From positions 1 to 64,000 of the forward strand of contig CAYRFL010000001.1 in assembly GCA_964423515.1 (NCBI GenBank): a stretch of DNA of 64,000 nt, written 5' to 3'. The notes beneath the pieces are model-generated. The model saw only the letters and a program-made list of their open reading frames with translations. It made no database searches and was not told where the DNA came from. Positions 1 through 47,779 of this stretch are shown here, in pieces; position 1 is the stretch's first letter; every line of letters starts with the position of its first letter. A program made the position numbers and the translations under genes. The DNA comes from an uncultured archaeon (GTDB lineage: Archaea > Thermoplasmatota > Penumbrarchaeia > JASLWR01).

Positions 1-50
1 GTCCGCCGCCCGCGCGCCCGGCGCCGCACCGGCCATCCCCGGCCCGCGGC

Positions 51-76
51 GGGGGATGTGGATGTGGATGGTGAGG
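51..76. repeat. 26-bp direct repeat (copy 1 of 2), exact match to 3175..3200: gggggatgtggatgtggatggtgagg. Lies in the 5' leader of the first adhesin gene
   Basis: Direct read: 51-76 is identical to 3175-3200. Weaker similarity continues for about 15 bp (ttggggagag). Confidence 0.9.
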
Positions 77-118
77 GCGACGAGGAAAAATTGGGGAGAG
101 TACGCGCGGAGGGTGACG

Positions 119-3100
119 ATGAATAGGTTCGTCTGTCTCGCTACTGCCTTCCTGGTGGTACTGTGCTCCCTGCTAATGATGGGGGTGTCCACCTCGCATG
201 CGGGTGAAGCGCCGGGGGTGCGGGTGATGGGGAATACAATCGTGGTGAATGCATCTGGTGGAGGGGATTATACGCGGATACAGTGGGCGGTGGATAATGC
301 GAGCGAGGGGGATACGGTGTACGTGGAGGCGGGGATGTACTATGAAGATTTAGTCATTACCAAGAAACTTACCTTAATTGGGGCTGCCCGGATGAATACG
401 ACCATTGACGGTACTACAGATGATTTAATTAGACCGATTATCGATGTCCTTGCAGATTTTGTGAATCTCCGTGGATTTCATATAATCTCGGACACATGGG
501 GAGAGGGGATTAATGTATCTAGTTCAAATGAAACGTTCATATCGGATTGTTCATCAATAAATGGATCGTATGGAGTAATGATTGATTCATCGCATAAGGT
601 TACTGTTGCGAACAGTGCATTCAGTCAATGTAAAGATGGAATTAGAATTTGCGATTCATCCCATTGCACAATTGAAAATAACACCTGTGATTCGAATGGT
701 TATTACTTTGGTGGAATGGATGATCTTGCTGGTTGTGGGATATCTGTTTTTCGTTCAAATCACAATTGGATCTCGAACAACACTTGTTGTTTTAATATGT
801 GTGGTTTTCCGTTTGATGACCAGGCATGTGGCATTTCTGTCTCCGGTTCTAATAATATAATAATCGACAATAACTGTTCTAACAATGAAAACTATGGGAT
901 CTACATAGATAATAGTGTTAATTGCATTATAGTCAATAATACATGCAATAACAATTTAAATTCCGGGATTGACGGAAGTAGCAATGAAAACATAATAGAA
1001 GAAAATATGTGCAATGACAATACACATGGCGTCGTCTTGCACGGTTCCAACAATCTAATAATGAAAAATAAATGTAATAACAATTCATATTTAGGTATTG
1101 AGACAAACGGAAATGGAAATGTAATGAAAAATAGTACCTGTAATCAAAACAGCTGTGGCATTGTCCTACATGGTTCCAATAATCTGGTACAAAACAACAC
1201 ATTCAGTTTGAATACATATGGTATTTATCTTGACGATTTTCATTTAAACAATATTATCAATAATACACTTAACAACAACTCCCAAGATGCCATATATATG
1301 AAAGACTCATATTCAAACCAAATTTATTCGAACCAGTTTCATGAAAATACTCGATATGCGGTTAAATTGGACATAGGGACTTCCGATAATATTGTCCATC
1401 ATAACAACTTCTATGGAAATAATGGCGAACAGGAACAGGCCGAGGACAATGGATATGGTAATCGATGGAATACACCAAATGAGGGGAACTATTGGTCCGA
1501 TTGGACCTCTCCAGATTCAAACGGCGATGGGGTAGTCGATCAACCTTACAATATATCTGGACCGAGCAATGTCAGGGATATCCATCCACTGAGTCAGCCA
1601 TTTTTTGGATTTAGACCCATTGCCGACGCAGGACCTGACGTTACCATCGAGCAACATGACATCGTTCATCTTAACGGTTCTGGTTCCAATGGACATCCAT
1701 TCATCACGGATTATACGTGGTCATTTTCCTATAACTCCACTCTGATTCAGATTCATGGTCCAACGAATATATTTACATTCGCCTTAGCTGGAAGCTATGA
1801 AGTGTTATTGACCGTAACAGACTCGAAGGGATACGAGGATGCCGACCTGAAGATGGTCCATGTTCTCGATATCGAACTTCCCCGTGCTAAAGCAGGTCCG
1901 GATGTGATCATCGAGTTGGGACAGACATACTTTTTTAACGGCAGTTTGAGTATTGATAACACGGAAATTGCGAACTACACCTGGATTTTCTTGTATGATG
2001 AAACGGTAATTCACCTCTACGAGTGTTCTACCTCATTCACATTTCACACTCTTGGACAATATGAAGTTACTCTTAATATCACAGATACGAGGGGGAATTG
2101 GGCTACGGATACCATGAATATAACTGTACGGGATTCTTACGGACCGATTGCCAATGCCGGTGATGATGTCATCGTCAACCAGCATGAGCTGGTCCATTTC
2201 AACGGCAGCGCAAGTTACGATAACGTAGAGATCACGAATTATTCCTGGACGTTCACGATAAATGAGAAAGAAATTCAACTTTACGGAGTTGAACTTAGTT
2301 TTCAATTCGATAACGCGGGACATTTCCAGATTCAATTGAATGTTTCCGATGCCGTTGGAAACTGGGCCACCGATACGGTAAATGTAACCGTCCTCGATAT
2401 CACCCCGCCCTCAGCGGATGCCGGCGGGGACATCGCCATACACGCGGGGGGCACGGCCTTCTTCGACGGCAGCGCCAGCCGTGACAACGTTGCGGTTGTC
2501 AATTACACCTGGGAGTTTGTGTATAACCACACCGAATACAAGCTGTACGGAGTCGGGCAATCCTTTACTTTCGCCATTCCCGATACCTACAACGTCACCC
2601 TAATGGTCCGTGACTTTGAAGGGAATCAGGGTAGGGACAGCCTGACCGTTACAGTTGTCGGGAAATCAACTCCCGAACAGCCCGATAATGGTGAAATAGA
2701 CACCGACGAGGACGGCTATAACGATACTTTCGAGAACGCATCTGGATCGAATCCCTTCGATGGGAACTCAACTCCATTGGACCTCGACGGCGATGGCTGG
2801 AACAATACGATGGAGGCAGCGGCGGGCTCAGACCCATTCAACCCCCTCTCCACTCCCATAGACTTAGATGGCGACACCTTCATCAACACCTACGAACTCG
2901 CATCCGGCTCCGATCCCCTCAACTTTTCATCAGTACCGACCGACCGCGATGGGGACGGGCGTCCCAACGACGAGGACGCGTATCCCGACGATCCCGCGAG
3001 GTGGGAGTGGGAGCTGGAGGACGACGATCCGCCGGATGATGAGGATGAGACCGGGGGTGGGATAGGTGCGAGGTACGTTTGGGCGGGGGTAAGCCTTGCT

Positions 3101-3256
3101 GGGGTGTTGATTGCGGGGATAATTATCTTCCTGCACTTCTGGAATGGTAGAAAAGAAGATATCAGGGATGTGGAGGGGGATGTGGATGTGGATGGTGAGG
3201 ACAAGTTGGGGAGAGTTGAGGTTGATGGTGAAGAGGAAGAGGGAGGTGGGGGGTGA
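119..3256 (+). CDS. Large cell-surface protein: signal peptide, right-handed parallel beta-helix (PbH1/NosD-like) repeats, 4 PKD-like domains, thrombospondin-type-3-like DxDxDG Ca-binding repeats, single TM, acidic cytoplasmic tail
   Basis: The ORF track gives 56..3256. A signal peptide (MNRFVCLATAFLVVLCSLLMMGVSTSHA) begins at the Met at 119, so the upstream MWMWMV extension is probably untranslated. Repeated N-x-[ST]/C-rich beta-helix rungs (NNTCNNN, NNIIxNN). Four PKD-like repeats, e.g. 'DAGPDVTIEQHDIVHLNGSGS', 'KAGPDVIIELGQTYFFNGSLS', 'NAGDDVIVNQHELVHFNGSASYD' and 'DAGGDIAIHAGGTAFFDGSASRD'. TSP3-like repeats 'DLDGDGWNNT', 'DLDGDTFINT' and 'DRDGDGRPND'. TM YVWAGVSLAGVLIAGIIIFLHFW. Confidence 0.75.
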   Translation: MNRFVCLATAFLVVLCSLLMMGVSTSHAGEAPGVRVMGNTIVVNASGGGDYTRIQWAVDNASEGDTVYVEAGMYYEDLVITKKLTLIGAARMNTTIDGTTDDLIRPIIDVLADFVNLRGFHIISDTWGEGINVSSSNETFISDCSSINGSYGVMIDSSHKVTVANSAFSQCKDGIRICDSSHCTIENNTCDSNGYYFGGMDDLAGCGISVFRSNHNWISNNTCCFNMCGFPFDDQACGISVSGSNNIIIDNNCSNNENYGIYIDNSVNCIIVNNTCNNNLNSGIDGSSNENIIEENMCNDNTHGVVLHGSNNLIMKNKCNNNSYLGIETNGNGNVMKNSTCNQNSCGIVLHGSNNLVQNNTFSLNTYGIYLDDFHLNNIINNTLNNNSQDAIYMKDSYSNQIYSNQFHENTRYAVKLDIGTSDNIVHHNNFYGNNGEQEQAEDNGYGNRWNTPNEGNYWSDWTSPDSNGDGVVDQPYNISGPSNVRDIHPLSQPFFGFRPIADAGPDVTIEQHDIVHLNGSGSNGHPFITDYTWSFSYNSTLIQIHGPTNIFTFALAGSYEVLLTVTDSKGYEDADLKMVHVLDIELPRAKAGPDVIIELGQTYFFNGSLSIDNTEIANYTWIFLYDETVIHLYECSTSFTFHTLGQYEVTLNITDTRGNWATDTMNITVRDSYGPIANAGDDVIVNQHELVHFNGSASYDNVEITNYSWTFTINEKEIQLYGVELSFQFDNAGHFQIQLNVSDAVGNWATDTVNVTVLDITPPSADAGGDIAIHAGGTAFFDGSASRDNVAVVNYTWEFVYNHTEYKLYGVGQSFTFAIPDTYNVTLMVRDFEGNQGRDSLTVTVVGKSTPEQPDNGEIDTDEDGYNDTFENASGSNPFDGNSTPLDLDGDGWNNTMEAAAGSDPFNPLSTPIDLDGDTFINTYELASGSDPLNFSSVPTDRDGDGRPNDEDAYPDDPARWEWELEDDDPPDDEDETGGGIGARYVWAGVSLAGVLIAGIIIFLHFWNGRKEDIRDVEGDVDVDGEDKLGRVEVDGEEEEGGGG
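3175..3200. repeat. 26-bp direct repeat (copy 2 of 2) embedded in the 3' coding end of the adhesin gene
   Basis: Identical to 51-76. Here it is translated as GDVDVDGEDKLGRVEV. Confidence 0.9.
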
Positions 3257-3289
3257 ATCTCGGTTCTCAACAATTATAAATAACTGTAC

Positions 3290-3667
3290 ATGGATATGGA
3301 AACTGCCATCTATACGGCATCATCAAGCATATGGACCACGGGAGGTGAGCAATTGGACCGAAAGGAAGTAGCAGAAGAATTCGCGCGCTCCATCAGAGAG
3401 AACCACGGGGCGAGCATCGAAGAGGTCATTCTGTTCGGGTCAGTTGCGAGGGGCGAGGATGGAGTCGATTCCGATATCGATATCGTCGTGGTCGGTAATG
3501 GGGATCGGTTCCGGTTGAGAAGGATGATCATGATCGACGTTATGAGATTCTTGCTGGAGTACGGTGTCTATATTTCCACGAAGGTGCTCACGAGGGAGTT
3601 GAAGGAGGATATCGGGGACAGCGGTTTCATGCAAACGATTCGAAGGGAAGGAATACCCATTGGATGA
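3290..3667 (+). CDS. Minimal nucleotidyltransferase (MNT-type, Pol-beta superfamily), the NTase partner of an NTase/HEPN pair
   Basis: hG[GS] and [DE]h[DE]h motifs: 'LFGSVARGEDGVDSDIDIVVV'. About 125 aa, the size typical of MNT antitoxin/NTase. Confidence 0.8.
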   Translation: MDMETAIYTASSSIWTTGGEQLDRKEVAEEFARSIRENHGASIEEVILFGSVARGEDGVDSDIDIVVVGNGDRFRLRRMIMIDVMRFLLEYGVYISTKVLTRELKEDIGDSGFMQTIRREGIPIG

Positions 3668-3701
3668 ATCGAGTGAACTACTGGCAAGGAGCCACTAGAA
3701 A

Positions 3702-4082
3702 TTGAGCTCGGCAAGACTTCTCTTTCAAAACCAGTTTTACGGAGATTGCGTTAGTCGGGCTTATTATGCCATGTTCTATGCCGCCAGGTCACTGTTGGCG
3801 CTCAAGAAGATATACCCCAAGACCCACGGAGGGGTCATAAGGGCTCTGGGACTCGAGTTCGTGACAAAGGGCTATCTCGATGAGATCTCGGGAAGGGCCA
3901 TTGCCAATGCGAAAGAGAATCGGGAGGAAGCCGATTACGGGATCCTCCTGAGCATGAGCAGGGAAGAAACCGAAAGGACCCTTGACGATGCGGAGGATTT
4001 CATCGAGAAGGTGGAACGGGCAAGTCATTTGACAAAAAACGAGATCGCCGGCGATCAGGATGTCCATCATGCAGGGGATTAA
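3702..4082 (+). CDS. HEPN domain protein, partner of the upstream NTase (HEPN/MNT module)
   Basis: 'YYAMFYAARSLLALK...KTHGGV...REEADYG' matches the HEPN (PF05168-type) R-x4-6-H/ADY signature. TTG start. Lies 35 bp after the NTase gene. Confidence 0.7.
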   Translation: MSSARLLFQNQFYGDCVSRAYYAMFYAARSLLALKKIYPKTHGGVIRALGLEFVTKGYLDEISGRAIANAKENREEADYGILLSMSREETERTLDDAEDFIEKVERASHLTKNEIAGDQDVHHAGD

Positions 4083-4156
4083 GACCGGAGTTTTTTCGAA
4101 CATCGTCATAAACATTTGAAATACTCACGATTCCCTGCTTGTTCCAGTAGGGGCAT

Positions 4157-4420
4157 TTGTTCATGAGATTTCGTATCACCAGAACGGTTGTATGCATCAT
4201 CCTCGTGCAGATGATGTTGATTGGATTCCTGCCGGTGATGGAAAGTACGACCTCTGCTGATGGCGTTTTCGTCCCATCAAGAAGACCCATCGTGGTGAAC
4301 GCGTCCGGTGGAGGGGATTACACACACATCCGATGGGCCATCGACGATGCGAGCGAGTGAGATACGGTTTGCGTGGAGGCGGGAACGTATAGAGAGAACG
4401 TGGTTATTGATAAAACGACA
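4157..4420 (+). pseudogene. Truncated 5' fragment of a paralogue of the 119..3256 beta-helix adhesin (signal peptide plus first beta-helix rung), interrupted by an in-frame TGA at 4358-4360
   Basis: Fragment reads 'VVNASGGGDYTHIRWAIDDASE*DTVCVEAGTYRENVVID'; gene 1 reads 'VVNASGGGDYTRIQWAVDNASEGDTVYVEAGMYYEDLVIT'. Homology continues after the stop, then is lost before the convergent gene at 4514. Confidence 0.6.
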
Positions 4421-4513
4421 GACCTGATCCCGCAAAAAGACACGGAGCGGCAAACCGAAAAAAGAAAAGAGAAAAAGTCGGAAGAACGGCTCCTGTGCAG
4501 TAACCCGCCCGGC

Positions 4514-7500
4514 TCAGTCTCCCCGGCTCATCTTGTTTAGATCGCTCTCGATGACGTCGATTATCTTCTGGGCGCGGAAATCCAGATTCTCGGTCCCGAC
4601 CTCGCTTCGAAGCTCCATTGCCACGTCGATGGCCCGTTCTATATATTCCTGGGCCTTCTTGTAGAACTTCATCTCAAGGGCAGGTTTCAGAAGGGTGATC
4701 TCCTCCGTGATCTCGTCATCCCCGATACCCAGATCCGCCAGCTCGGCCAGCAGCTCGTCCAGTTCCTCGAGCCCGTTCATTATCTTGTCCGATAGGTCTA
4801 TTTTGCCCTCGCTCACGACGTCCATGCGGGCACTCTTCATGATCTCGATGGACCTCTTGAGGTCTCCATCCTCGTATCGTGGTTTCGTGGAGATGAGAAG
4901 ATTCCCCACGCTCTCCTCGCTCTCCCCCGCCTGCGGCTTCCGCTTCCTCGTCTCCATGATCTTCTTCCACGTCTGTAATATCTCATCGTCCGACGGGGAC
5001 TCGATTATAAGGCCCCTCATCTTCTGAAGCTCCTTTATTATCACCGCCAGATTCCCCTTCTCGAGAAGCTGGTTGATCCTCTGGAGGTCCTCCATCATAT
5101 CCTCCACCGGAGCCTCCATCTCGGAGGACCTTTCCTCTATGAGCTTCTTCGTGTTGAACAGCAGGTCCCGGGCCATCATCTCCACCAGGGGATTGCTCTT
5201 CTCGAAGAGTGTAAGGCTCTCCGGGAGCTCCTCCAGGGTGAAATCCGCCATCTCCAGATCGCCCTGGTCCTTGAGGTCCGCCACTATCTCCGATATGAGG
5301 TTGCGTATTCCCATGAAATCCAGTCCCACGTCCTCCTGGGGAGCGTATCGGAGCGGAGCGTAGTCATAGGCTCGAGTGGGCTCCACGTACCTGCCCACCG
5401 CCTTCCCATCGTCCCTCAGCTTCTGCCTGCACGATTCCCTCAGCTTCTTGGCCTGTTCGTAATCCTCGTTGAGGGCCAGGGCACGGTTGCAGTACTGTAT
5501 GGCCTCAACGCTACGGTCCAGGTTCTTGAGTATCACCGCTTTGTTGTAGAGCAGTTTCTCATCCCTGGGCTGTATCTTCAGCGATTTGTTGAAATATTTC
5601 AATGCTCCCTTGTAGTCGCCCTTCTTGAAGAGCTCCACGGCCTTCTTCTTCAGATCCCGCAGCTTCAGAGCCTTGTCCTTCTTGAACAGCAGCACCTCTT
5701 CCTCCATCCTCGATATCACACGCTCCACCAGGGAGGCCGCCTTCCTTATGTCCCCATCCCCCAGGGCGTTGTAAACCTTCTGTATGAGCCTCCAGATACC
5801 CGGTGAAGAAATGCCTTCCATCTCCAGCTTCGAAAGTTTCTTTTCCAGCTCGTTCACCTTGGTCCTCAATTCGGATCCCTTCTTCAGGTCCAGGGCGATC
5901 TGAAGACATTCCTGCACGTAACCCATGGCGGTCACGTATGATTTGGCCTTCAGGTCGCTGTCTATGATGGGTTTGTAGGATACAATTTTTTTCTTAACTG
6001 CGCTGACGTCGATCCCTTTCTCCTCCAGCTCCTCAATTAGCTCCACCGCACTCTCCAGTTCCTCTATGATCCTCTCGTACTGGTCCACCGCATCCAGTTC
6101 CTCTATGGCCTTGTTGATGATCTTGGTGGCCATCTTGAAATCCTGCTCGTCGAATGAAAGCTTGGCCCGGATGATGAGCTTCTTCTCCTCGTCGATATTC
6201 ACGTCCTTCTCCTCGAGCCAACGCAGTTTCCCCTCTGCATTGCGGAGCCTTTCGAGGAACTTCTTCTCGAAGATGGCCAACCTCATCTTTCGCAGCCTCT
6301 CCATGGCGCTCTCCGGCTCCCCCCGGTCCAGCACCCATTCTATCTCCTCCAGCGCCTCCAGCTGCTCGTCCTTGGGGCCTGTGAGCTCCTCGCCCGTGGT
6401 CTCGATTATTCGTCTCGTGGAAATGACCAGGTACCTTCCCTTGGCCTCGAGAAGTATCTTGTAGGCCAGTTCCGATTTCGAGGTGGCCCTCTGATAATTT
6501 CCCTGGCGAAAGCTTATCACACCATCCCGAAGGAGGGGATTGACGTCGATCACATCCATTCCGAGCTCCTTGCATTCCTCGGCGATCCTGCCCGCGCTCT
6601 CGATCATCTCCATGGCCTTCATCATCTCGTCGGCGTCCTCGCGGTCGTCGCAAAATCCCTGTATTTCGTCGCTGAGTTCGGAGACCAGCTCGTAATCCCC
6701 GGCCTTGAGGGCATCGTCCATCACCCCCAGGAGATACATCATGGGCTGGACATCCTTGGTACTTCTCTTTGTCTCCTCGATCCTTAGTGTGGCTCTCTCG
6801 AACTTCAACCGGGCTCTCTCGTGAAATTCCTTCAATTCGCTTATGGTGGATTCAAGGTCCTCGATAAGATGTTTCGCCTCGTATATATCGTACCTTGATA
6901 GAGCCTCCTCCACCTCGGCCAGGCCCTCGTTGATGGCGGGAGTTATCTTGATCCCCAGGGTAAGTATCTCATCCATCTTCTCTCCGAACTTGTCCAACCT
7001 GGCCTGTATCTCGGAGAGGGAATCCTCGTGTGCCCTCGTGGCGACATCCCCGATCTCCTGGATCTTCAACCAGATCCCCTTCAGGCTGTCAAAGTGGGTC
7101 TGGATCACGTCCTGGGCCAGCTTTGCCCTGTCCAGGGCGAGCTCGTACTCCTCCCCTTCCTCGGCCTCCTTTGCATCGTCGAGAAGGGCTCGCGCACGGG
7201 TCACTTCCCATCCCATGGGAGCTGCGTTCTTCATGAGCTGCCAGGCTTCCTTGATGGCATTGTCCGCTTCCTCGTAGAGGCTCTTCTTCCTGTTCAGCAG
7301 GTCCCTGCATGCGGCTGCCTTCGATTTTGCCTCGATATACTCTGCATTCTTGAACAGGTCTATGACCCTGCTGAACTTGTCCTCCACCTCCTCCAGGGGA
7401 ACCTTCCCCGTCTTGAGCACGCTGATCCTGTCCTGTAACTGGATGACCTCGTCCCTCACGTCCTCGAACAGCACTTCGGTCTCCTCGAGATACGTCAGGC

Positions 7501-8884
7501 ATTCCCTGCCCAGTTTGGTGGCATCGAGATAGCGTCCATTCTCGATATCAGCAGTTATATTTGCCATGTAAGAGTTGATGGGATTTGGCGGGAGCACCAT
7601 CCCCTTGCGCCTGATGCGGGATATCAATCCCTTGATCTCCCTGATGACGTTCTCGGCCTTGGTCTTGTACTTGTCCTCAGGTATATTTCCCAGGAATTCC
7701 TGATCGTCCCGTACCTCCTCCCCTTCAGTCGTTTCGACCTCGGTCTTAACCATTTCCGAGATCGCGGCCTCTTCCTCGTACACGACGGAGGTATCTTCCG
7801 ATACAATTTCTTCGCTTACCGAACCGTAAGAACCCGCCTCGGGGGGGATGGGTTCCTCCCGGATCACATCGGCCTGGATCGACTGCTGCTGCATCTGGTC
7901 GAAATCTTCCGGGCTAATGGGTCGCTCGCTCTCCTTTTCCTCGAACTTGAGATCATCCCGGGAATACTGGAAATTATCGAAAGCTGCCTCCATCTGGGTG
8001 GTCCTCATCTGGTTATAGCGCCATTCCCGCTTCTTTCTCTCTTCCTCGTTATAGTCGACCTGAGCACTGCCGTTTGGATCGGATTCGGTGAACTGATCGA
8101 AATAATCTTGGGCGGTTTCAGGCTGCACGGTCGGAAAGGGAGAACCGGCCATGGCCTGAGGCTGCATTTCCAGAGGGTATTGGGATGCATCGTGGGATGG
8201 AGCGGGCAGCATCGGAAGGGCATCGGGCGTCCCGAGATCCCTCCCGGCATCCCCCTCGTCGACAGCGAATTCAGAAGGTGGAGGCGGTTGGACCGGGATC
8301 ATCTCCGGCGTGATCTGCGGAGGTTCCACACAGAGTGGATAATCCTCATCCAAACCGTTTCCGTTGTCCGGGACCGGGGATTGTTGAAGCCCCTCGGTGA
8401 AACCCATCCTCTTGTGAATATTGACCACGTCGCACGAGATAACGTCGAAACCGAGCATCTGAGATAAACCCTGTACGGTCATCTGGGTATCCCGCACGAT
8501 ACTGGACTGAAAGGAGCGGACGTTGGGCTCCATGGGATATTTCAATGACACCTGCTTGGTTGTGGTCCGTATCAGTTTTTCCAGTGTGCTCTTGAGCGCC
8601 TGGATATCGCCACCCACGGATTTTACAGCCAGTTCCGGATCCCGCAACCTGACCACCGTCTCCATCTCCAGCATCAGGGATGTACCGGTGTTATCGGTCA
8701 CAGTGAGACCGGGTATGTTCAACACCATGGGCGCGGTGGAGATCTTGTAAACGTTCTTCCACGGGGTCAGCCAATATTTCGGATTCTTCTGAGAAGTATG
8801 TACGAACTGCCCTTTACCAGTATTAACGATGTGCACCTCATCCGGGGGCACTACCACTACCTTGAACTTTTTGGCCATAATCAT
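4514..8884 (-). CDS. Giant (1456 aa) SPFH/band-7 domain protein fused to a Pro/acidic linker and about 1100 aa of alpha-helical coiled-coil/TPR-like repeats (flotillin-like architecture). No TM segment
   Basis: N-terminal 'VVVVPPDEVHIVNTGKG...TVTDNTGTSLMLEMETVVRLRDPELAV...VISCDVVNI' fits the SPFH fold consensus. A clear TPR ('LFKKGDYKGALKYFNKSLKIQPRDEKLLYNKAVILKNLDRSVEAIQYCNRALALNEDYEQAKKL') and long heptad-rich helical modules follow. Confidence 0.65.
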   Translation of the reverse strand: MIMAKKFKVVVVPPDEVHIVNTGKGQFVHTSQKNPKYWLTPWKNVYKISTAPMVLNIPGLTVTDNTGTSLMLEMETVVRLRDPELAVKSVGGDIQALKSTLEKLIRTTTKQVSLKYPMEPNVRSFQSSIVRDTQMTVQGLSQMLGFDVISCDVVNIHKRMGFTEGLQQSPVPDNGNGLDEDYPLCVEPPQITPEMIPVQPPPPSEFAVDEGDAGRDLGTPDALPMLPAPSHDASQYPLEMQPQAMAGSPFPTVQPETAQDYFDQFTESDPNGSAQVDYNEEERKKREWRYNQMRTTQMEAAFDNFQYSRDDLKFEEKESERPISPEDFDQMQQQSIQADVIREEPIPPEAGSYGSVSEEIVSEDTSVVYEEEAAISEMVKTEVETTEGEEVRDDQEFLGNIPEDKYKTKAENVIREIKGLISRIRRKGMVLPPNPINSYMANITADIENGRYLDATKLGRECLTYLEETEVLFEDVRDEVIQLQDRISVLKTGKVPLEEVEDKFSRVIDLFKNAEYIEAKSKAAACRDLLNRKKSLYEEADNAIKEAWQLMKNAAPMGWEVTRARALLDDAKEAEEGEEYELALDRAKLAQDVIQTHFDSLKGIWLKIQEIGDVATRAHEDSLSEIQARLDKFGEKMDEILTLGIKITPAINEGLAEVEEALSRYDIYEAKHLIEDLESTISELKEFHERARLKFERATLRIEETKRSTKDVQPMMYLLGVMDDALKAGDYELVSELSDEIQGFCDDREDADEMMKAMEMIESAGRIAEECKELGMDVIDVNPLLRDGVISFRQGNYQRATSKSELAYKILLEAKGRYLVISTRRIIETTGEELTGPKDEQLEALEEIEWVLDRGEPESAMERLRKMRLAIFEKKFLERLRNAEGKLRWLEEKDVNIDEEKKLIIRAKLSFDEQDFKMATKIINKAIEELDAVDQYERIIEELESAVELIEELEEKGIDVSAVKKKIVSYKPIIDSDLKAKSYVTAMGYVQECLQIALDLKKGSELRTKVNELEKKLSKLEMEGISSPGIWRLIQKVYNALGDGDIRKAASLVERVISRMEEEVLLFKKDKALKLRDLKKKAVELFKKGDYKGALKYFNKSLKIQPRDEKLLYNKAVILKNLDRSVEAIQYCNRALALNEDYEQAKKLRESCRQKLRDDGKAVGRYVEPTRAYDYAPLRYAPQEDVGLDFMGIRNLISEIVADLKDQGDLEMADFTLEELPESLTLFEKSNPLVEMMARDLLFNTKKLIEERSSEMEAPVEDMMEDLQRINQLLEKGNLAVIIKELQKMRGLIIESPSDDEILQTWKKIMETRKRKPQAGESEESVGNLLISTKPRYEDGDLKRSIEIMKSARMDVVSEGKIDLSDKIMNGLEELDELLAELADLGIGDDEITEEITLLKPALEMKFYKKAQEYIERAIDVAMELRSEVGTENLDFRAQKIIDVIESDLNKMSRGD

Positions 8885-8954: not shown

Positions 8955-9690
8955 CAAGAACGCCAGTGTCTTTAGGCACTGGATGAATTGTAGCGCCGAA
9001 AATTTAAACCGGTTGAGTCCATTCCCGTTTTGAAAGCCACAATACGAAGGTCGACTTGACCGTCAGACGCTAAATTTTCGGCGCGCCTCTCGGCGAGGCA
9101 GTCCATGAACAGCGTAGGCTTTCAAATAGTTTTCGGAGGTCTACAATATGAACCGTTTAGCGAGAGCAAGACACAGTTTCGGAGGATGTAATTTCCATAT
9201 GCAGTTCACGCCGAAGTACAGACGCCAGATTTTCAAGTACCCGAAAGTCCAGGCCATTTGCCGGGAGTTGATGGAAAAGAAAGCAAGGAAGTTGGGCATA
9301 CGAATCGGAGCCATGGAATTCGGGCCGGATCATGCCCATGTATTTTTAGTGGGATGCAAAAATTACAGTGCATCGTATCTTGCATCACAATTGAAAGGCT
9401 ACACGTCCTATGGTATTCGCAATAGGTGCTGGGACACGGTCAAGAAGCATTTGTGGGGAGGTTCCTTTTGGAGTGATGGATACTTCTTTGAATCGGTTGG
9501 ACGGGTCACGACTGAGATGGTGGAATTCTACATTGAGAGGCAACAACATAAGCATTGGCAAGGAGATGACTATGACTATTTCAAAGTGAGGAAGACCGTA
9601 CGGTTGACGGGCCAAACTTCCTTGACTGACTTTGCCTAAAAACAACGGCACTACACATAAAACGCCAGCTCCTTTAGGGGCTGGTAGTTT
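8955..9690 (+). mobile_element. IS200/IS605-family insertion sequence, tnpA only with no tnpB, with subterminal hairpins at both ends
   Basis: Left hairpin at 8962-8982 (cgccagtgtc TTTAGG cactgg). Right hairpin at 9663-9684 (cgccagctcc TTTAGG ggctgg). Both are preceded by 'acgccag'. The Y1 HUH transposase ORF lies between them. An internal long palindrome gcgccgaaaattta ... taaattttcggcgc sits at 8992-9085. Confidence 0.75.
9148..9639 (+). CDS. tnpA: IS200-like Y1 (HUH) transposase TnpA
   Basis: HUH motif 'DHAHVFL'. Catalytic Tyr region 'WSDGYFFESVG'. N-terminus 'FHMQFTPKYRRQIF' is typical of IS200 TnpA. Confidence 0.9.
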   Translation: MNRLARARHSFGGCNFHMQFTPKYRRQIFKYPKVQAICRELMEKKARKLGIRIGAMEFGPDHAHVFLVGCKNYSASYLASQLKGYTSYGIRNRCWDTVKKHLWGGSFWSDGYFFESVGRVTTEMVEFYIERQQHKHWQGDDYDYFKVRKTVRLTGQTSLTDFA

Positions 9691-11654: not shown

Positions 11655-14600
11655 TCAATCCGCCCAGGCCCAATCATCATCCGATTCCGAACGATCGGAT
11701 GACCTACGCTTGAATGTGACAGTTTCAACCTCATGTACGGAGTCCATTTCGAAGGTTTCCTTCACGTCCGGCTTCGAACCGTCTCCCCTACCGTACCGGG
11801 GCATCGCTCCATTCGTATCCGGGTCTATCTCCGATGATACTTCCTGATCATCTTGAAAATCAAAATCTCCGTACTCATCCGCCACTTCGTCCTCTTCCTG
11901 TTCATATTCTTCCTCCGGACCCTCCTCCTCAAATTCCTCGTAATCCTCCAATTCCGAATCATGGTCATGTATCCCTCCGTCCGCATATCCCGCACCGGAT
12001 TCTCCACGATCGTAGACGTCAGGACGATCTCCCTCGTTCACCTGATCCGTATCATACTCCTCGTCCTCCCCATCCCATGCACCATTGTCGTCCATATCAT
12101 CATTCCAATGTGCTTCTTCCTCGTCTTCTTCTATGGTAGTGAAGACCACTTCCTCATGGTCTTCCATTTCGTGCTCTACGACATCTCCGGCACTTCCAAT
12201 ACCGAATTCACCATCGTATTCGACCACGTTGTCCAGGCCGTAGTAGTCAACCTCATCATCATAGGTCGGTATCTCATCGCTCCTGGCGGTAAAGTCGATC
12301 TTATCGCCCGAGGCGATCCTTTTCCGTATCTGTCTTTCCGCCTCCTCGTAGGATCTCTTGATCTCCTTCTTGCGGATCTCATCTCTCAGGTTATCCTGCT
12401 CAAGTCTCAGGTTTCGATAGGTCCCCCTCTTCTTCTCCCTCCTGGCCTTGATAAGGAAGGTGAAACCTATCAGCAGAACTCCCAGAACGGAGACGATCCA
12501 TATCCAGTACTCCTTGATGAGTCCTCGTTGCTCATCGATCCCGGTACCGTTCCCATCCTTCTCGTCTCTCTCGGTTACGACGATGGAGAGTATGATGGAA
12601 TCGGTAATCATGTCATCGTCCGTTACAACGAGGATAACTGTGAATATGCCCTCCTCCGTGAATTGATAACTCACCTGTTTTCCGGATATCACCACGCTTC
12701 CGGGGAAATGCCATGCGTATTCCAGCTCGAGTATCTCATCATCATCGGGATCGGTAGTGCCGGCGGAGGTGAATGAGACGTTCCCTCCCTCCTCTACCTC
12801 CGTCCTGTTGCTCCTGCCATAGGCAACGGGAGGAAGATTGCTTACCCTTATCTCCTTTCTGGCAGGTGGTGAGATCATCCCCCGATCATCCTTGACGATC
12901 AGGCTAACGGTGTATCGGATGTCATCATCGAACTTCCGCGATATTGTTTTGGGCTCCTTCGTGATATTGTCGTATCTGCCATCCGAGAAGGACCATCGAT
13001 ACTCCACGATCTCAGCATTATCGGGGGAATAGGAACTCTTTGGCGATAGAGCGACGAGAGTATCGACAGTAATATTCTCCAAAAAGTCGTGTAGGGAGAT
13101 TATTGCCACCGGTTTCTTGGGTGGCGGAGGTGGGGTTATAACCTTCAATTCATGAACGGACGAGTTGTCCGAGATCTGCCCGTAGGTATCCCGAATCATG
13201 CAAGACAGGTAAAATGTGCCAGTCTCATTGTAAATACGGTTAACCACTGCCTCGGACAGCCATTCTGACACGGTTCCATCGCCGAAATCGAACCGGTATT
13301 CGATCTCGAGGGTGTCTGCCTTTGATGCGGAAGCGTTCAATGTGACGGACCCACCGACGACGATGACGGTCTCATCCACGGTGAGCCGGGCAACAGGGAA
13401 CGTCGGTTTGGGCACAACCTCGATGGGATCGTATTGGTAATTGTTGGATTCGCTAGATTCATACAGCTCGTTGAACGGGTCCACATGCACCTCGAGGTAT
13501 CGGCTGCCCTGGAGAGCCATCCAGGTGAAGTTCAACTCGACGGTCTCATTATACTGGATGGTCGATATTCGCCTCTCGGCCTTCTTCACGAAATCGAGAT
13601 AGAAGGTCACCAGAACATCCTCGGCAGTCTTAAGGTCCAGATTATAAACCAAAATCCTGCTTGTCATTTCCATTCCGTGATAGGGATCATCATGGCTGTG
13701 ATCGAAATCGGAGACGGCGAGGTCGGAGAAACCCACCCGTAGTGTGAGACACTTACCGTTCTCGATATTCACCTCTTCCCGAAGATAACCCCATTGCTCC
13801 GATTCGTGGTAGAACAGGTAGCTGTCAAAGACGGAGGTGGTCGTACCCTCCATCGTCCGGTTCATGATGGCGATGTTCATCCCACCATCGGGACCGGTCC
13901 GGAACGAGTAGGACGGTCCTCCGTATATCTCCTGGACATCCAGCTCTAAGCCGACCAGAGGAGCGTCGCCGAAGTCCTTGACAATCAGGCTCATTCTTAC
14001 GAACATGAAGAGCGTGCAATCCTCCACGAGAAAGACCTTATCGTAATCCAAGGAGACGTTTATGGCATCCACCAGGGAGTGACGAAGCTGCAAATTCCAG
14101 CCCTGAGTGATGATGGAGGAATCCCGGAGGTCCATGTTCATGCTGAAGAGGTCGATCCCGTGGGTACAATCGCCGATAGTGACATTATCCATATGCAGGG
14201 TATCGTCCGATCCCTCGACCGTGACGGGCGAATCGCAGCCAAGGAAGTCGCAATGAGAGATGACAGACCAGTCCGACAGGTCAAAATTGGCATAGAGCTC
14301 GATACCATCGTTACAATCCTCGAAAGTGCAATCGGTAATGAAAAACTCCGTCTGGATCAATGTCAGGGGGCAATACCAGTTGTAAAATCTCGCATCCTTC
14401 AGCGTCAGATTGGAATTCTCGATAGTGTTTCTCTCGGCACTCATATTTTCATTGAAGAAGATGGCCCCATCCATCAGGACCTGGCAGTTGTAGAAAGTAA
14501 GACCTGCGGATAGATTGTAGAACACGTTCTCCAGGAGCGACAAGGGTACGGCCCGAAAGGTGATGGATGAAACATTGTAGAATATGCTGTTGTTCAACCG

Positions 14601-15713
14601 GTACAGAGGAACGTCGCTGTCTCTCAGACCATCTCTCCCATCCTGATCGTTGTCTATACCTCCGTCACCGATGTGATCCATTGTCTCGTCAAGGGTATTG
14701 GCAAAGATACACCCGGCGATAGATATTTGGTGATTGTTCATGAGAAAATCATTGCCATTTCGGAGGAACGCGATATCATAGATATCTATTTCGGACCCGA
14801 GCATCGAAATGCTCGATATCGCTTCAACGTTCGAATAGAAACATGACGCCCGTATCGTGCAGACGGAAGAAGAAATGCATAATCCGCACCCCAGGTTCGA
14901 AAATGCACAGTAGGTGACGTTCAATGTGGAATCCTGAAAGGATAGCATCCCCGTAGTGGTCCCGTTGATGTGGCTTCCCGATAGATCGACCGTGCTCCTG
15001 TCCAGTGTAAGGGTATCCGTAAGCCTCGAGATGTAGCTGCGATTCAAGATAAATGAACTGAGTATGATGTCCTCGCCCTGAAGCTCCGCAACGTACGAGT
15101 TCATGAAAGTGAGGTTGGATTCCAGGGAATACAATCGGAGAGGGATATCCGAATCCACCGTAACGTTCAAGAGAGTGAGCGATGATTGACCCGTAAGGGT
15201 TATGTAGGGGTCCGAACCGGCGAAATTGAAATGTATGGTCGAATTCTCGATGATAAGCTCGGTACCGGAATCTATCTCCAGGCTGCCGTTGATGTTTATC
15301 ATCTTGTGCGAAACGAATGCACTACCGCCTGAGCCGAATGTGTAATCGGAGGAATGATTGGAATACTCAAGATTACCCCCCGGAAGCTGAGCGGGATTCG
15401 CATCCAGCAGACTCAACCGCGACGCGTAGGAATCCCTCACTCGATAGGCGGATTCCACTTTTCCCAGGATCCCCACGGTATCATCCCGTTTCCCATGATC
15501 ATCGGTCCCTCTATCGGTTGCATCGGCCTCGGAGAACCGTCCTTTCGGGGATGTTATTTCATACGGTCGGACTGAGCCCGTGGTGTGATTTTCGTTTATA
15601 TGAAATATTGACAGGGGTAAAAGGATTAACATCAGCACCGTCAAGCAAGCCAGCAATTTCATCCGATGTTCTATTTGAAAGGGCATATTTAATTTTATCC
15701 TATGTATTTCCAT
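11655..15713 (-). CDS. Large (1352 aa) cell-surface protein: N-terminal signal/TM, parallel beta-helix region, 3 PKD-like domains, TM, then a roughly 260-aa extremely acidic cytoplasmic tail
   Basis: Beta-helix rungs rich in N/S/T/C (e.g. 'NSTIHFNFAGSDPYITLTGQSSLTLLNVTV'). PKD-like segments ('DFGDGTVSEW', 'YRWSFSDGRYDN', 'YAWHFPGSVVISGKQVSYQF'). TM 'YWIWIVSVLGVLLIGFTFLIKA'. D/E-rich tail. Confidence 0.75.
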   Translation of the reverse strand: MEIHRIKLNMPFQIEHRMKLLACLTVLMLILLPLSIFHINENHTTGSVRPYEITSPKGRFSEADATDRGTDDHGKRDDTVGILGKVESAYRVRDSYASRLSLLDANPAQLPGGNLEYSNHSSDYTFGSGGSAFVSHKMININGSLEIDSGTELIIENSTIHFNFAGSDPYITLTGQSSLTLLNVTVDSDIPLRLYSLESNLTFMNSYVAELQGEDIILSSFILNRSYISRLTDTLTLDRSTVDLSGSHINGTTTGMLSFQDSTLNVTYCAFSNLGCGLCISSSVCTIRASCFYSNVEAISSISMLGSEIDIYDIAFLRNGNDFLMNNHQISIAGCIFANTLDETMDHIGDGGIDNDQDGRDGLRDSDVPLYRLNNSIFYNVSSITFRAVPLSLLENVFYNLSAGLTFYNCQVLMDGAIFFNENMSAERNTIENSNLTLKDARFYNWYCPLTLIQTEFFITDCTFEDCNDGIELYANFDLSDWSVISHCDFLGCDSPVTVEGSDDTLHMDNVTIGDCTHGIDLFSMNMDLRDSSIITQGWNLQLRHSLVDAINVSLDYDKVFLVEDCTLFMFVRMSLIVKDFGDAPLVGLELDVQEIYGGPSYSFRTGPDGGMNIAIMNRTMEGTTTSVFDSYLFYHESEQWGYLREEVNIENGKCLTLRVGFSDLAVSDFDHSHDDPYHGMEMTSRILVYNLDLKTAEDVLVTFYLDFVKKAERRISTIQYNETVELNFTWMALQGSRYLEVHVDPFNELYESSESNNYQYDPIEVVPKPTFPVARLTVDETVIVVGGSVTLNASASKADTLEIEYRFDFGDGTVSEWLSEAVVNRIYNETGTFYLSCMIRDTYGQISDNSSVHELKVITPPPPPKKPVAIISLHDFLENITVDTLVALSPKSSYSPDNAEIVEYRWSFSDGRYDNITKEPKTISRKFDDDIRYTVSLIVKDDRGMISPPARKEIRVSNLPPVAYGRSNRTEVEEGGNVSFTSAGTTDPDDDEILELEYAWHFPGSVVISGKQVSYQFTEEGIFTVILVVTDDDMITDSIILSIVVTERDEKDGNGTGIDEQRGLIKEYWIWIVSVLGVLLIGFTFLIKARREKKRGTYRNLRLEQDNLRDEIRKKEIKRSYEEAERQIRKRIASGDKIDFTARSDEIPTYDDEVDYYGLDNVVEYDGEFGIGSAGDVVEHEMEDHEEVVFTTIEEDEEEAHWNDDMDDNGAWDGEDEEYDTDQVNEGDRPDVYDRGESGAGYADGGIHDHDSELEDYEEFEEEGPEEEYEQEEDEVADEYGDFDFQDDQEVSSEIDPDTNGAMPRYGRGDGSKPDVKETFEMDSVHEVETVTFKRRSSDRSESDDDWAWAD

Positions 15714-39474: not shown

Positions 39475-42400
39475 TCATTTTTTCAACACAAGCTTCATAC
39501 CGCAGTCCTCGCACTCGAATTCCAGCGGACGTTTGGTAGAGGTGACCGTCTGTATGCTCTCGCATTTCGGACACTTGATCTTCACGCGTTTGGCAGGTGT
39601 CTTTTCCGCAGTGTCCTTCTTGGTGCTCTCGGGCAGGGCGGCTGGCGCCTTGCCCTTCGGCAGCGCCTTGGTCTTCAGGAGGTCCTTCTCGATGTCCTCC
39701 TTCTTGACCTTCTTGCCCGCCTTCTCCTCCTCCTCGGCCATCTCCTTCTCGGCCTCGGCCCTGGCCTTGGCTATCTCATCCTTGTATTCCTCGGGGACGG
39801 GCCTCTTTGGGCGCGACAGGATGAGGATGATGACGAATAGAAGGAGGAATCCCACCACTGCAATGAGTACATAGAACAGGGTGGCTGCCTTCCCTTCCGT
39901 TGCAATCTCCCATACGCCCTCTCCCTTCTCCTCCTCCTCTACCTCCACGGATATCTCCTCTTCCTCCTCGTCACCGGATGGTTCGTTGGTGAACATCACC
40001 TTGATCTTGTGCTTGCCATCGGTGACCTTGGCCTCGACCCATTCGAAGCGGAATATATCGGTGGTCTCGGGTTTCAGCGTGACGTCCACGTTCCCGATCA
40101 GTTTGTCGTTGTCATACACGTCCACTGACTTGTCTTCGATGTCGGCGGAACCTGCGTTCGTTAACTTGATGAGGATCACGTTCTCCTTTCCTGCCTCCAC
40201 TGTCTTCCCATCATCGTTGAGATCCTCAAAGGAGATCGGGGTATCTGGATCAAATTGGAGTATCGGTAGCTTGATGTTCACCTTGAACTCGTAGTATTCC
40301 ACGCTATCGTCCTCGCTCTCCGCCTTTATCTTGATATCATATCCATTGGTCCTCTCCTCCACGTCGTCGGGGGGCGTGATCTCTATTGTCACCGTCTCGG
40401 TATCGCCCCGAGCGATCTGTTTCGAAGCGGGCAATATGGTTATCGTCCAATCCTTGTTGGGCTTGGTCTTGACTGTCAAACTCACCTTGTCATCGGTATT
40501 TCCACTGTTGGTGATATCTATCTTGAAGTTAAGCTTGGAGTCCTCCGCAGGATTGAGGTCTTCCTCATCACCTTGACCGGATGATTCCAATTCCAACAGA
40601 TTTACCTTCTCGATCTCCAGGCTGAAGCTGTTTTCGATGTTCTCCACTGTGTCGTCTCCCAATGATATCGCCCTTAGGCCGATGGAATAATCCCCTGCTT
40701 CATACTCCTCGACGTCGGTGCCGATGGTGAAGACAACCTTCACCTCCAATTCCTCCCCCGCGTTTAGGTAATCTGTGGTGGAACCGCCCTCTATCGTCCC
40801 CCATTCCCGCTTGTCCCCGGTGAGATAGAACTTGAACTTGTCGGGTCCGTTGCCCTTGTTCTTCACCGTGAAATAGAAGTCCACATCCTCCGAGAGTGGG
40901 GTCTCGAGGTTATCGATCTTCCCGGAATTGCTCCAGTCCTGGCTCTCGATCTCAAGGGCATATTCCTGTGTGATGGTCGTGGTGAGCATGACGTTGACCT
41001 CGTACTCCTCGTCGCCCTCGCCGGCCGTGGAGGTGATATTCGTGTGATAGGTCCCCCGAAGGGCCTTGGAGTAATCGCTCGACAGCTTCACGGTGATGGT
41101 GACATCGGCGGATTCACCAGAGGGCAGGGTGATGCTGGAGGGCGAGACAGTCCTGGTGCCCCACTTGATCACCTCGTCGGGTAGGGTGACCGTGATGGTA
41201 TCGTCCCCGTTGCCCTTGTTCTTCACCGTCAGGGTGTACGTCAGGCTCTCACCGGGCTGGCCCTCCTTGGTGGTCTGCAATGCGGTGACCTTTATCTCGT
41301 GTATGGCGGTGACGTCGACAGTGAAGGTTATGGTCTCCACTATGTCCTCTGCCTCGTCATAGAGGGTGTCGTCGCCCCTCGATATCACCTTTATCCTGAT
41401 GTCGTAATCCCCCACCGGTTCGTCCCGGTCTATGTTCACTGTAAGCCTGAAGGTCTGGGATTGGTCCTCGGCCAGATCCATGGTCTCGTTATCGATGGAG
41501 ATGTCGTCCCATCCCTTCGGCTTGTCGTCGATCTCCAGCTTCACGATGTCGTCGCCCGTCCCGATGTTGGTAACCTTGAAGGGGAACTCCAGGGTCCTCT
41601 TCAGGGACGAGGAGGATTCGAGCTCTCCGGTCTCCTTCCTCTTCTTGGAGGCCGCCAGCTCGAGGCCGTAGGCGGTCTCGATGACGGTGTAGAGCGTCAC
41701 GTTCGTCCCGATGTCGTCAACAGTCCCGCTGTTCTCACCGGGTGAATAGACGTATATGATCGTCTTGAAACCATCAGGCCCCGTGGGCTCCTGATTGTTT
41801 GGTATCTCTACGGTAATGGTCACCGTGGCGTCCCCGTCGGCATCCAGGGAACTGATGGTCTTGGTGGAGCGGGTGACCCAGCTTGCATGGTCCGATTCGC
41901 CCGCCACGACCTCGATCTTGAAGTTGTCCTTGTCGGTTCCCTTGTTGGTCACCTTCACCGAGTAGCTCACCTTGGCCTTGGTTCCGCTTAGGTTCGGCGT
42001 AACCTCCTTCCTGTCCTCGGTCACTTCAAGGGCCACGTCCCTCTTGGGGTTCACGTGGGTGGTGGTGATTATCTTCTCGGTCACACCGTCGGGATCGTTC
42101 TGCGATTCCGCTTTCAGGACGACCTTGTAATCACCCACCTCTTGGTCCTCCGGGGGCGTCACGTTGATGGTGACCCTGAAAGAACGTCCGGGCCGGAGGT
42201 CGAAGCCCAGCATGTTTGCGGGGATCTCAGCCCAGCTGGAATAGGCGCCGTCGCTTCCCTCGGTTACGATGGAGACCTCGATGCGATCGTCGCCCGTACC
42301 GTCGTTCTTCACGTCGATAAGGTACTTTACCATGGCCCCGGGGTCGGTCTCCTCGTTGAGGTCGTTGCTGGAAAGGCGTATGGCAAACTCCTGTTTCACT

Positions 42401-47679: not shown

Positions 47680-47779
47680 TGCCGGGGGCGGGGTTCGAAC
47701 CCGCGACCTTCGGATAGCCCAGGAGCTCATGTAAGATCCCTATGAGTCCGACGCTCCAACCAGGCTGAGCCACCCCGGC
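47680..47779 (-). tRNA. Elongator tRNA-Met (anticodon CAT) interrupted by a roughly 25-nt intron at the canonical 37/38 position. A CAU tRNA-Ile2 cannot be excluded
   Basis: Minus-strand read: GCCGGGG TG GCTC AGCCTGGTTG GAGC G TCGGA CTCATA[GGGATCTTACATGAGCTCCTGGGCT]A TCCGA AGGTC GCGGG TTCGAAC CCCGC CCCCGGC A. All four stems are Watson-Crick. G1-C72 excludes an initiator. Intron CATGAG pairs with exon CTCATG (bulge-helix-bulge-like). Confidence 0.75.

Follow-up and report, generated by a model that had tools for sequence, protein, structure and literature searches.

An exact 26-bp repeat around a surface-protein gene of an uncultured Thermoplasmatota archaeon probably reflects a head-to-tail array of paralogues

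Background

Bacterial contingency or cassette loci for surface antigens, among them the tandem families of the vsp/vlp type, carry genes whose 5' ends are conserved. In archaea, clusters of large surface glycoproteins form hypervariable cell-surface gene islands that differ between co-occurring lineages and whose diversity is reported to stem from homologous recombination and mobile elements (PMC4535781). Modules of a different kind, the HEPN/MNT (HepT/MntA) type VII toxin-antitoxin systems, place a small minimal nucleotidyltransferase (MNT) gene and an adjacent HEPN gene on one strand in overlapping or abutting frames (PMC7641770; PMC2701414). Here we analysed a stretch of 64,000 nucleotides, hereafter the window, from an uncultured marine archaeon of the Thermoplasmatota (Penumbrarchaeia; JASLWR01), namely positions 1 to 64,000 of contig CAYRFL010000001.1 in assembly GCA_964423515.1. 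At its left end lies a gene for a putative surface protein (gene 1) that an exact 26-bp repeat seems to bracket, followed by a nucleotidyltransferase (NTase)-HEPN gene pair and by a broken relative of gene 1, the stub. The first-pass annotation of this DNA had taken the upstream copy of the repeat for the leader of gene 1. We find it very likely instead that the locus is a head-to-tail array of surface-protein paralogues, that the repeat is tail sequence of two neighbouring members, and that the array decays downstream of gene 1.

Results and discussion

The repeat lies in the coding tails of two neighbouring genes

The features that bear directly on the repeat are these:

1-126, plus strand: 3' end of an upstream surface-protein paralogue, cut by the window edge (open frame, stop TAG at 124-126, match to the tail model)
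51-76, plus strand: repeat copy 1, read as GDVDVDGE within the tail of the upstream gene; hexamer array at 54-70
88-102, plus strand: KLGRV tail motif of the upstream gene, read from the sequence (family motif [DE][DE]LGRV)
119-126, plus strand: 8-bp stop/start overlap ATGAATAG, holding the ATG of gene 1 and the TAG of the upstream gene
119-3256, plus strand: gene 1, 1045 amino acids (Pfam domains; NCBI gene call of 1045 amino acids from 119, P0001)
3175-3200, plus strand: repeat copy 2, read as GDVDVDGE in gene 1, inside a longer GGATGT array at 3166-3194
3203-3217, plus strand: KLGRV tail motif of gene 1 (translation, tail model)

The 26-mer GGGGGATGTGGATGTGGATGGTGAGG is present in two copies, at 51-76 and 3175-3200, with 0 mismatches, and a search of the whole window allowing up to three mismatches returned no further copy (shuffled sequences are expected to give 0). 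The bracketing repeat reported by the first-pass annotation is thus real, and so are its two companion observations, that the second copy is translated as GDVDVDGE in the 3' end of gene 1 and that a weaker similarity runs past the repeat, since 48-127 and 3172-3242 share 72.5% identity over 80 columns, with flanks just around 60-70% identical. At its core the sequence is a GGATGT hexamer array with 2.8 copies at 54-70 and 4.8 at 3166-3194 (Tandem Repeats Finder). The 26-mer is made of (GAT GTG)n, an (Asp-Val)n micro-repeat, followed by GATGGTGAGG. The two copies agree over the array and also over the GGGG that precedes it, which is not repetitive, and the GATGGTGAGG that follows. They are direct repeats and stand, from their coordinates, in identical codon phase, their codons beginning at 52 and 3176. 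Neither the 26-mer nor a degenerate junction pattern found a match in the genome and metagenome contig collections, which omit the contigs that carry the locus (contig L001 holds the 26-mer). Exact protein look-ups of gene 1 with either start, of P0001 and of the 1454-aa neighbour likewise yielded no sequence from upstream of the window.

What the first copy belongs to becomes apparent from frame 1, which is open from base 1 to the TAG at 124-126 and reads VRRPRARRRTGHPRPAAGDVDVDGEGDEEKLGRVRAEGDDE before that stop. The end of this peptide, ...GDVDVDGEGDEEKLGRVRAEGDDE, matches the cytoplasmic tail of gene 1, GDVDVDGEDKLGRVEVDGEEEEGGGG, each directly followed by its stop codon. Gene 1 itself starts at ATG 119 and not at ATG 56, because the NCBI call is of exactly 1045 amino acids from 119 and the homologues begin with MNK or MNR at the same residue; as the upstream stop overlaps this ATG, gene 1 has no leader. 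The proposal that 51-76 is the leader of gene 1 does not survive this finding, the stretch being coding sequence in an open frame that ends with the family tail and whose stop overlaps the start of gene 1. Taken together, the open frame, the family tail and the junction homology on two other contigs (L004 and L008, see below) identify window 1-126, on its reading as sequence, as the 3' end of the preceding paralogue. The 26-mer is accordingly a stretch of cytoplasmic-tail coding sequence still exactly common to the upstream gene and gene 1. GDVDVDGE is absent from the printed tails of the best 66 homologues, so that the exact identity is specific to this neighbour pair; it may have been preserved, or the neighbours made alike, through recent duplication, gene conversion or slippage.

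The acidic LGRV tail is the usual C-terminus of the family

Close homologues of gene 1 end in a hydrophobic helix, a basic patch and an acidic tail with the motif [DE][DE]LGRV, as in P0011 (...DEDELGRVNAEGGNE), P0009 (...EDDLGRVEKSDESDSE) and P0029 (...GRKEDIRRDEDVDSLGRIGK). Of 120 homologue matches no fewer than 33 have the motif, most of the closest ones among them, and the variants FGRI, VGRV and MGRV occur among the homologues P0003-P0061. Gene 1 conforms to this plan and ends in ...FWNGRKEDIRDVEGDVDVDGEDKLGRVEVDGEEEEGGGG before its stop. A hidden Markov model (HMM) was trained on 36 homologue tails that did not include gene 1, and was then run over the 1698 stop-to-stop peptides obtained from the six frames of the window. 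Gene 1 was recovered with an E value of 5e-6 and the frame-1 peptide of 1-123 ranked second of the 1698 (E 0.011), the next one having an E value of 1.1. The acidic LGRV tail behind the membrane helix is therefore the normal C-terminus of the family, and the end of gene 1 is native. This disposes of the suggestion that the C-terminus of gene 1 reads through a former leader, as the same tail is found in dozens of homologues from other genomes, some of which have no downstream neighbour. To our knowledge neither the tail motif nor the overlapping junction has been described, and literature searching, which was not aimed at either, turned up nothing on them.

Comparable junctions occur in other loci

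Two metagenome contigs other than that of the window, whose junctions were also multiply aligned, carry the same arrangement. L004 holds three head-to-tail paralogues with two stop/start overlaps of the same 8 bp, ATGAATAA, one gene ending in ...DDVGRVRKEGANE and another in ...DELGRVNAEGGNE, in both cases with the next one starting MNKLGCL. In L008, P0015 is followed by P0054 with a 4-bp ATGA overlap. The similarity to the window is not confined to the proteins: positions 11722-12008 of L008 and 60-345 of the window are 77.8% identical in DNA over 288 nt, unbroken through the tail, the overlap, the next signal peptide and the first rung of the beta-helix, while L004 1017-1289 is 74% identical to window 73-345 and L004 4707-4946 is 75.8% identical to window 75-314. 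In the window, too, the genes stand in tandem, their stop and start overlap and the junction block is conserved, and the tandem array of paralogous surface-protein genes supposed from the outset is borne out both by the end of an upstream paralogue and by these comparable arrays.

One member of the L008 pair is unusual in its own right. P0054 (L008 11782-16026) has C-terminal winged helix-turn-helix domains (PF12840, PF13412) past a hydrophobic stretch read as a membrane helix, and would combine a surface protein with a putative DNA-binding domain on the cytoplasmic side.

Gene 1 has conserved ends and a divergent centre

Three segments can be distinguished along gene 1:

119-345, plus strand: conserved 5' module, signal peptide and first beta-helix rung (57-65% amino acid identity to homologues; 74-81% DNA identity to L004/L008)
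419-2368, plus strand: divergent core, beta-helix and PKD1-3, with low GC content at third codon positions (GC3); best beta-helix match 37%
2369-3256, plus strand: conserved 3' module, PKD4, TSP3-like stalk, membrane helix and tail (GC3, segment homology)

The product runs from a signal-peptide-like N-terminus through a NosD-type beta-helix, four PKD domains and TSP3-like acidic repeats to a membrane helix and a cytoplasmic tail. Its Pfam matches are PF05048 (E 5e-33), PF13229 (E 1e-29) and, in four stretches, PF18911 (E 1e-39), and the hydrophobic helix was read by eye at about 3074-3142. Beta-helix and PKD domains are therefore both present in gene 1 (the body of the upstream gene lies outside the window), and the succession of helix, basic patch and acidic LGRV tail is found in gene 1 and in the upstream peptide. 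An adhesin function or surface exposure of the product is putative, as suggested by its domain content.

The closest homologue changes from segment to segment. For the first 95 residues P0037, P0007 and P0054 come nearest, at 57-65% identity, and in the beta-helix no homologue exceeds 37%; PKD1-3 are about 51% identical to P0008 and P0002, PKD4 and the stalk about 59% to P0007 and P0015, and the helix and tail 52% to P0029. Over the whole protein, identity is at most 44% among the matches covering most of the length, the closest being P0002 (40%, over 79% of the query) and P0003 (44%, over 68%). GC3 follows the same division, falling from 0.60-0.66 at 119-418 to 0.28-0.52 at 419-2368 and rising again to 0.58-0.74 at 2369-3256; elsewhere in the window genes have 0.52-0.76. 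Gene 1 is a mosaic with conserved ends and a divergent centre of low GC3, as are its homologues: P0003 (L004), P0015 and P0054 (both L008) have the trough as well, and GC3 is 0.12-0.5 in the cores of the family against 0.6-0.8 in their own ends and in neighbouring genes, in at least four genes on three contigs (L004 4751-7618; L008 8165-16026). We considered whether the AT-rich core could be a foreign insertion particular to gene 1, and rejected this because P0003, P0015 and P0054 have the same trough.

The array decays downstream of gene 1

Beyond the stop of gene 1 the following features are found:

3272-3281, plus strand: AT-rich TATA-like box AATTATAAAT upstream of the NTase gene
3290-3667, plus strand: minimal nucleotidyltransferase of MNT type with GSVARGEDGVDSDIDIV (PF01909, E 9e-12; PF18765; PADLOC PDC-S09)
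3660-4082, plus strand: HEPN gene of PF05168 type with in-frame TAG at 3696-3698; about 140 amino acids if intact, possible restart at TTG 3702
4163-4429, plus strand: putative pseudogene stub of a family member, signal peptide and first rung (interrupted by TGA at 4358-4360; no homology past about 4430)
4514-8884, minus strand: convergent gene for a protein of 1456 amino acids with SPFH/Band7, coiled coil and TPR; right boundary of the locus, outside the array

No significant start of a next gene was detected right after the stop of gene 1 by alignment to the junctions of L004, L008 and the window, since 697 and 275 of 5000 shuffles reached the score (p about 0.14 and about 0.055). Around the stop, 18 of 22 nt agree with the L008 overlap, GTG standing for the ATG of the next gene; this match is confounded by the homology of the tails, and it gives a hint that the array may once have continued directly.

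The stub lies further on, where the first-pass annotation had seen a signal peptide and first rung interrupted by TGA and then lost; the TGA is at 4358-4360 and the loss at about 4430. It shares 47.7% amino acid identity with residues 3-87 of gene 1 (tblastn E 3e-14), and its DNA aligns to that of gene 1 at 79% identity over 101 nt (4289-4389 versus 239-339), the first rung only. Other family members are closer to the stub (51-57%) than gene 1 is, and the DNA match therefore reflects family-wide conservation of the first rung and not a recent tandem copy. The stub ends near the point where the variable core of gene 1 begins and retains the conserved 5' module only. It reads as a decayed family member and not as a close copy of gene 1, so that the idea of a mostly lost paralogous copy holds insofar as a further, decayed member is present downstream, but not insofar as a close paralogue of gene 1 was meant.

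Pfam confirms both members of the NTase-HEPN pair that had been noticed between the second repeat copy and the stub. The NTase has the GS...DxD motif and the NTP_transf_2 domain, and the HEPN domain at 3702-4082 matches PF05168 with an E value of 6e-16. When the TAG was replaced by X, the Pfam alignment reached profile position 3 and its score rose from 59.1 to 64.3 bits; around the NTase homologue P0151 the HEPN protein has 138 amino acids and overlaps the end of the NTase. The HEPN gene here thus carries a premature stop, with a restart at TTG 3702 possible. The site does not vary in the strain contigs that cover it, and the NTase partner is intact. A reading of the TAG as a sense codon was set aside, since TAG 124-126 ends the upstream gene and is hence a stop here. 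Against the curated MntA model NF047752 the NTase scores 27.7 bits, the cut-off being 60; the RNase motif Rx4-6H is not readable in the HEPN translation (no H at +5 to +7 after R), its position being occupied by NREEADYG; and the TAG falls within the HEPN domain alignment and leaves no intact two-gene operon. The pair therefore lacks three marks of a HEPN/MNT module and, with no NCBIfam or PADLOC match for the HEPN protein, looks toxin-antitoxin-like only at the level of domains.

A mobile insertion of this pair had been proposed, a proposal that our results do not sustain. Neither target-site duplication nor terminal repeats were found flanking 3257-4156, the GC3 of the segment is 0.61-0.63 as in host genes, the nearest non-self relative of the NTase is only 56% identical and stands in an unrelated context, and the nearest transposase gene, of IS200 type (9148-9639), is 5 kb off, past a large gene. 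All same-species contigs carry the pair, and no relative with an empty site was found, the sole relative among species-representative genomes being a 2.3-kb contig without the flank, from a metagenome-assembled genome of an uncultured archaeon, which matched through the coiled-coil neighbour at 72% identity. The pair bears no mark of a recent mobile insertion. Scans for bacterial promoters and terminators are uninformative on this archaeal DNA.

Two neighbours deserve a description of their own. The protein of 1456 amino acids has an N-terminal SPFH/Band7 domain, a very long acidic region resembling a coiled coil and C-terminal TPR, and a 1-bp deletion splits its gene in strain contig L007. 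The transposase gene at 9148-9639 encodes an IS200-type Y1 enzyme (PF01797, E 7e-28).

Strain variation and assembly ends

The locus is partly covered, at 99.7-100% identity, by four further metagenome contigs from the same species. Between L001 and the window, four of five single-nucleotide polymorphisms (SNPs) fall in a 26-bp stretch (2858-2883) inside a TSP3-like repeat, turning STPIDLDGDTFINTYE into STPLDIDGDTFNNTYE, a cluster that looks like a conversion-like patch; between L006 and the window, five of eight lie in the stub (4261-4428). Such clusters between strains have the look of gene conversion or of relaxed constraint. In L007, 13 bp (3269-3281, AACAATTATAAAT; L007 430) are deleted between gene 1 and the NTase gene, a loss that removes the TATA-like box and brings a GTG overlapping the stop of gene 1 into the reading frame of the NTase. 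At its start L007 has 100 nt that are unrelated to the window and weakly GH116-like (PF04685, E 0.037), the join being at DRDGDG codons at about 2940 with three SNPs nearby. A real cassette swap was entertained for this end, and an assembly chimera is the likelier cause, considering the weak likeness to a GH116 glycosidase and the join at common DRDGDG codons.

The ends of the assemblies fall at or near conserved modules, at 71 in L001, at 2926 in L002 and, for the source contig, probably at base 1; the overlapping codons, the junction block, the LGRV tail and the low-GC3 cores explain why assemblies break here. Differences in gene content between strains were not seen, the variation consisting of patchy SNPs, the 13-bp deletion and one probably chimeric contig end, and 1-9 kb holds no dedicated recombinase. 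As to the supposed recombination hotspot for surface-antigen variation, the clustered SNPs and the deletion are signs of recombination and heterogeneity between strains.

Weighing the explanations

The first-pass annotation held that 51-76 is a non-coding leader or junction repeat and that gene 1 reads through at its C-terminus after insertion of the NTase-HEPN pair and deletion of copy B. We regard this as very improbable, even though the repeat does bracket gene 1, NTase-HEPN pairs are known in other genomic contexts and the 18/22 match to the L008 overlap around the stop of gene 1 is compatible with a lost downstream neighbour. Copy 1 stands in an open frame with a family tail overlapping the ATG of gene 1, which leaves no leader; the tail is conserved across dozens of homologues of other genomes, including genes without a downstream neighbour; the search for a next-gene start after gene 1 gave nothing significant; and 3257-4156 shows none of the borders of an insertion that were looked for. 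Still harder to credit is that the first 76 or so bases are a spurious, repeat-made contig end and that there is no upstream gene at all. Bases 77-126 differ from the tail of gene 1 and yet align with the junctions of L004 and L008, and L001, an independent assembly, has no mismatch in 71-126; on the other side, assemblies do break here (L001 from 71), the upstream tail peptide is missing from the protein collection, and L007 opens with 100 nt of unrelated sequence joined to the interior of gene 1. Somewhat less remote, but unlikely, is convergence, by which independent slippage expanded (GGATGT)n in two diverged tails with no recent recombination or conversion. It would account for the different lengths of the hexamer arrays (2.8 versus 4.8 copies) and for flanks of just about 60-70% identity, and it fits the ...RRDEDVDSLGRI... 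of P0029 at the same place and the acidic D-V runs that recur in the family; against it, the identity includes the non-repetitive GGGG and GATGGTGAGG, GDVDVDGE is not in the printed tails of the best 66 homologues, and a run of 26 matches is improbable at a background of 72% (a rough estimate gives about 0.01 over the tail).

The head-to-tail array remains the reading we hold, and several observations count against it. The body of the upstream gene is outside the window, which holds its last 41 codons only, and no assembly found extends further, L001 itself beginning at base 71. For the upstream tail of 41 amino acids the protein collection offered no candidate, and its match to the tail HMM is modest, at 12 bits. 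No strain contig showed a recombinant without gene 1 or with an exchanged core. That the protein lies at the surface and has a signal peptide and a membrane helix is putative, deduced from domain content and from reading the sequence, and the low GC3 of the cores, being family-wide, may reflect something other than exchange.

How the array may work and what it means

In the array as we picture it, each gene would consist of a conserved 5' module, a divergent ectodomain core of low GC3 and a conserved 3' module, and genes with overlapping stop and start would probably be co-transcribed and translationally coupled. Recombination between the two direct, in-phase copies of the repeat would remove exactly 3124 bp, that is gene 1, and, given the same codon phase and orientation, would leave an in-frame hybrid tail; the predicted junction of such a deletion is ...CCGCGGCGGGGGATGTGGATGTGGATGGTGAGGACAAGTTGGGGAGAG... 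The junction blocks of about 0.3 kb, comprising tail and signal peptide, could supply homology for the gain, loss or exchange of variable cores. Gene 1 would be the last intact member, with the TAG-broken HEPN pair and the stub of about 90 codons marking the decaying end of the array.

The layout is overall that of an ordinary multigene family, in which a repeat that seems to bracket a gene is the C-terminal coding tail of tandem paralogues and a model of leader and read-through is not needed. For this poorly studied family of surface proteins, the overlapping codons, the conserved junction block, the LGRV tail and the low-GC3 cores come as by-products, and junction primers and the tail HMM provide handles on surface diversity in uncultured marine archaea. 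The LGRV tail might be a sorting or anchoring signal. As a tentative and rather doubtful extension, the junction block, some 0.3 kb long and 74-78% identical in three genomes or more, may be a portable recombination joint for swapping, gaining and losing low-GC3 heads in marine Thermoplasmatota, within arrays or between lineages, in which case the GC3 trough would mark a circulating pool of cassettes and the LGRV tail would be an undescribed signal for sorting or anchoring.

Other genes of the window

Three giant open reading frames, none of them a paralogue of gene 1, lie at 11655-15713 (1352 amino acids, PKD and CARDB domains), 39475-45540 (2021 amino acids, with many Ig-like, CARDB and NPCBM_assoc domains) and 50203-56052 (1949 amino acids, with a Peptidase_C39-like domain). 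A tRNA of 100 nt at 47680-47779 on the minus strand was called by Rfam and missed by ARAGORN; its additional length hints at an intron, which agrees with an archaeal origin. This tRNA, the naming of homologues after Candidatus Thermoplasmatota and the single genomic relative would together indicate an uncultured marine archaeon.

Comparison with known systems

With the cassette-type antigen loci of bacteria the locus shares conserved ends, variable middles and short coding repeats able to slip or recombine, but silent cassettes, an invertible promoter, a site-specific recombinase or a homopolymeric switch were not found here. The NTase-HEPN pair resembles HEPN/MNT type VII toxin-antitoxin modules in the adjacency of its two small genes on one strand with overlapping frames, and differs from them in a HEPN of PF05168 type with R-EEAD-Y instead of Rx4-6H, in the premature TAG and in an NTase below the MntA cut-off (PMC7641770; PMC2701414).

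The hypervariable islands of archaea are similar too (PMC4535781): like them, the locus has neighbouring surface paralogues and patchy strain SNPs, together with an indel, a stub and, about 5 kb off, an IS200-type transposase gene. It differs from those islands in that its genes follow one another strictly head to tail, stop and start codons overlapping and the junction block being conserved; no alternative versions of it were recovered, and its host is a marine uncultured archaeon and not a haloarchaeon. Gene 1 also resembles annotated NosD-like beta-helix/PKD proteins of Thermoplasmatota and other archaea, named for example 'PKD domain-containing protein [Candidatus Thermoplasmatota archaeon]'. 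From these gene 1 differs in being at most 44% identical overall (among matches covering most of the length), while it has in common with them PF05048, PF13229, PF18911/PF00801 and TSP3-like repeats, as well as the N-terminal rung VVNASGGGDYTxIQWAxDNA and the C-terminal membrane helix with its LGRV tail.

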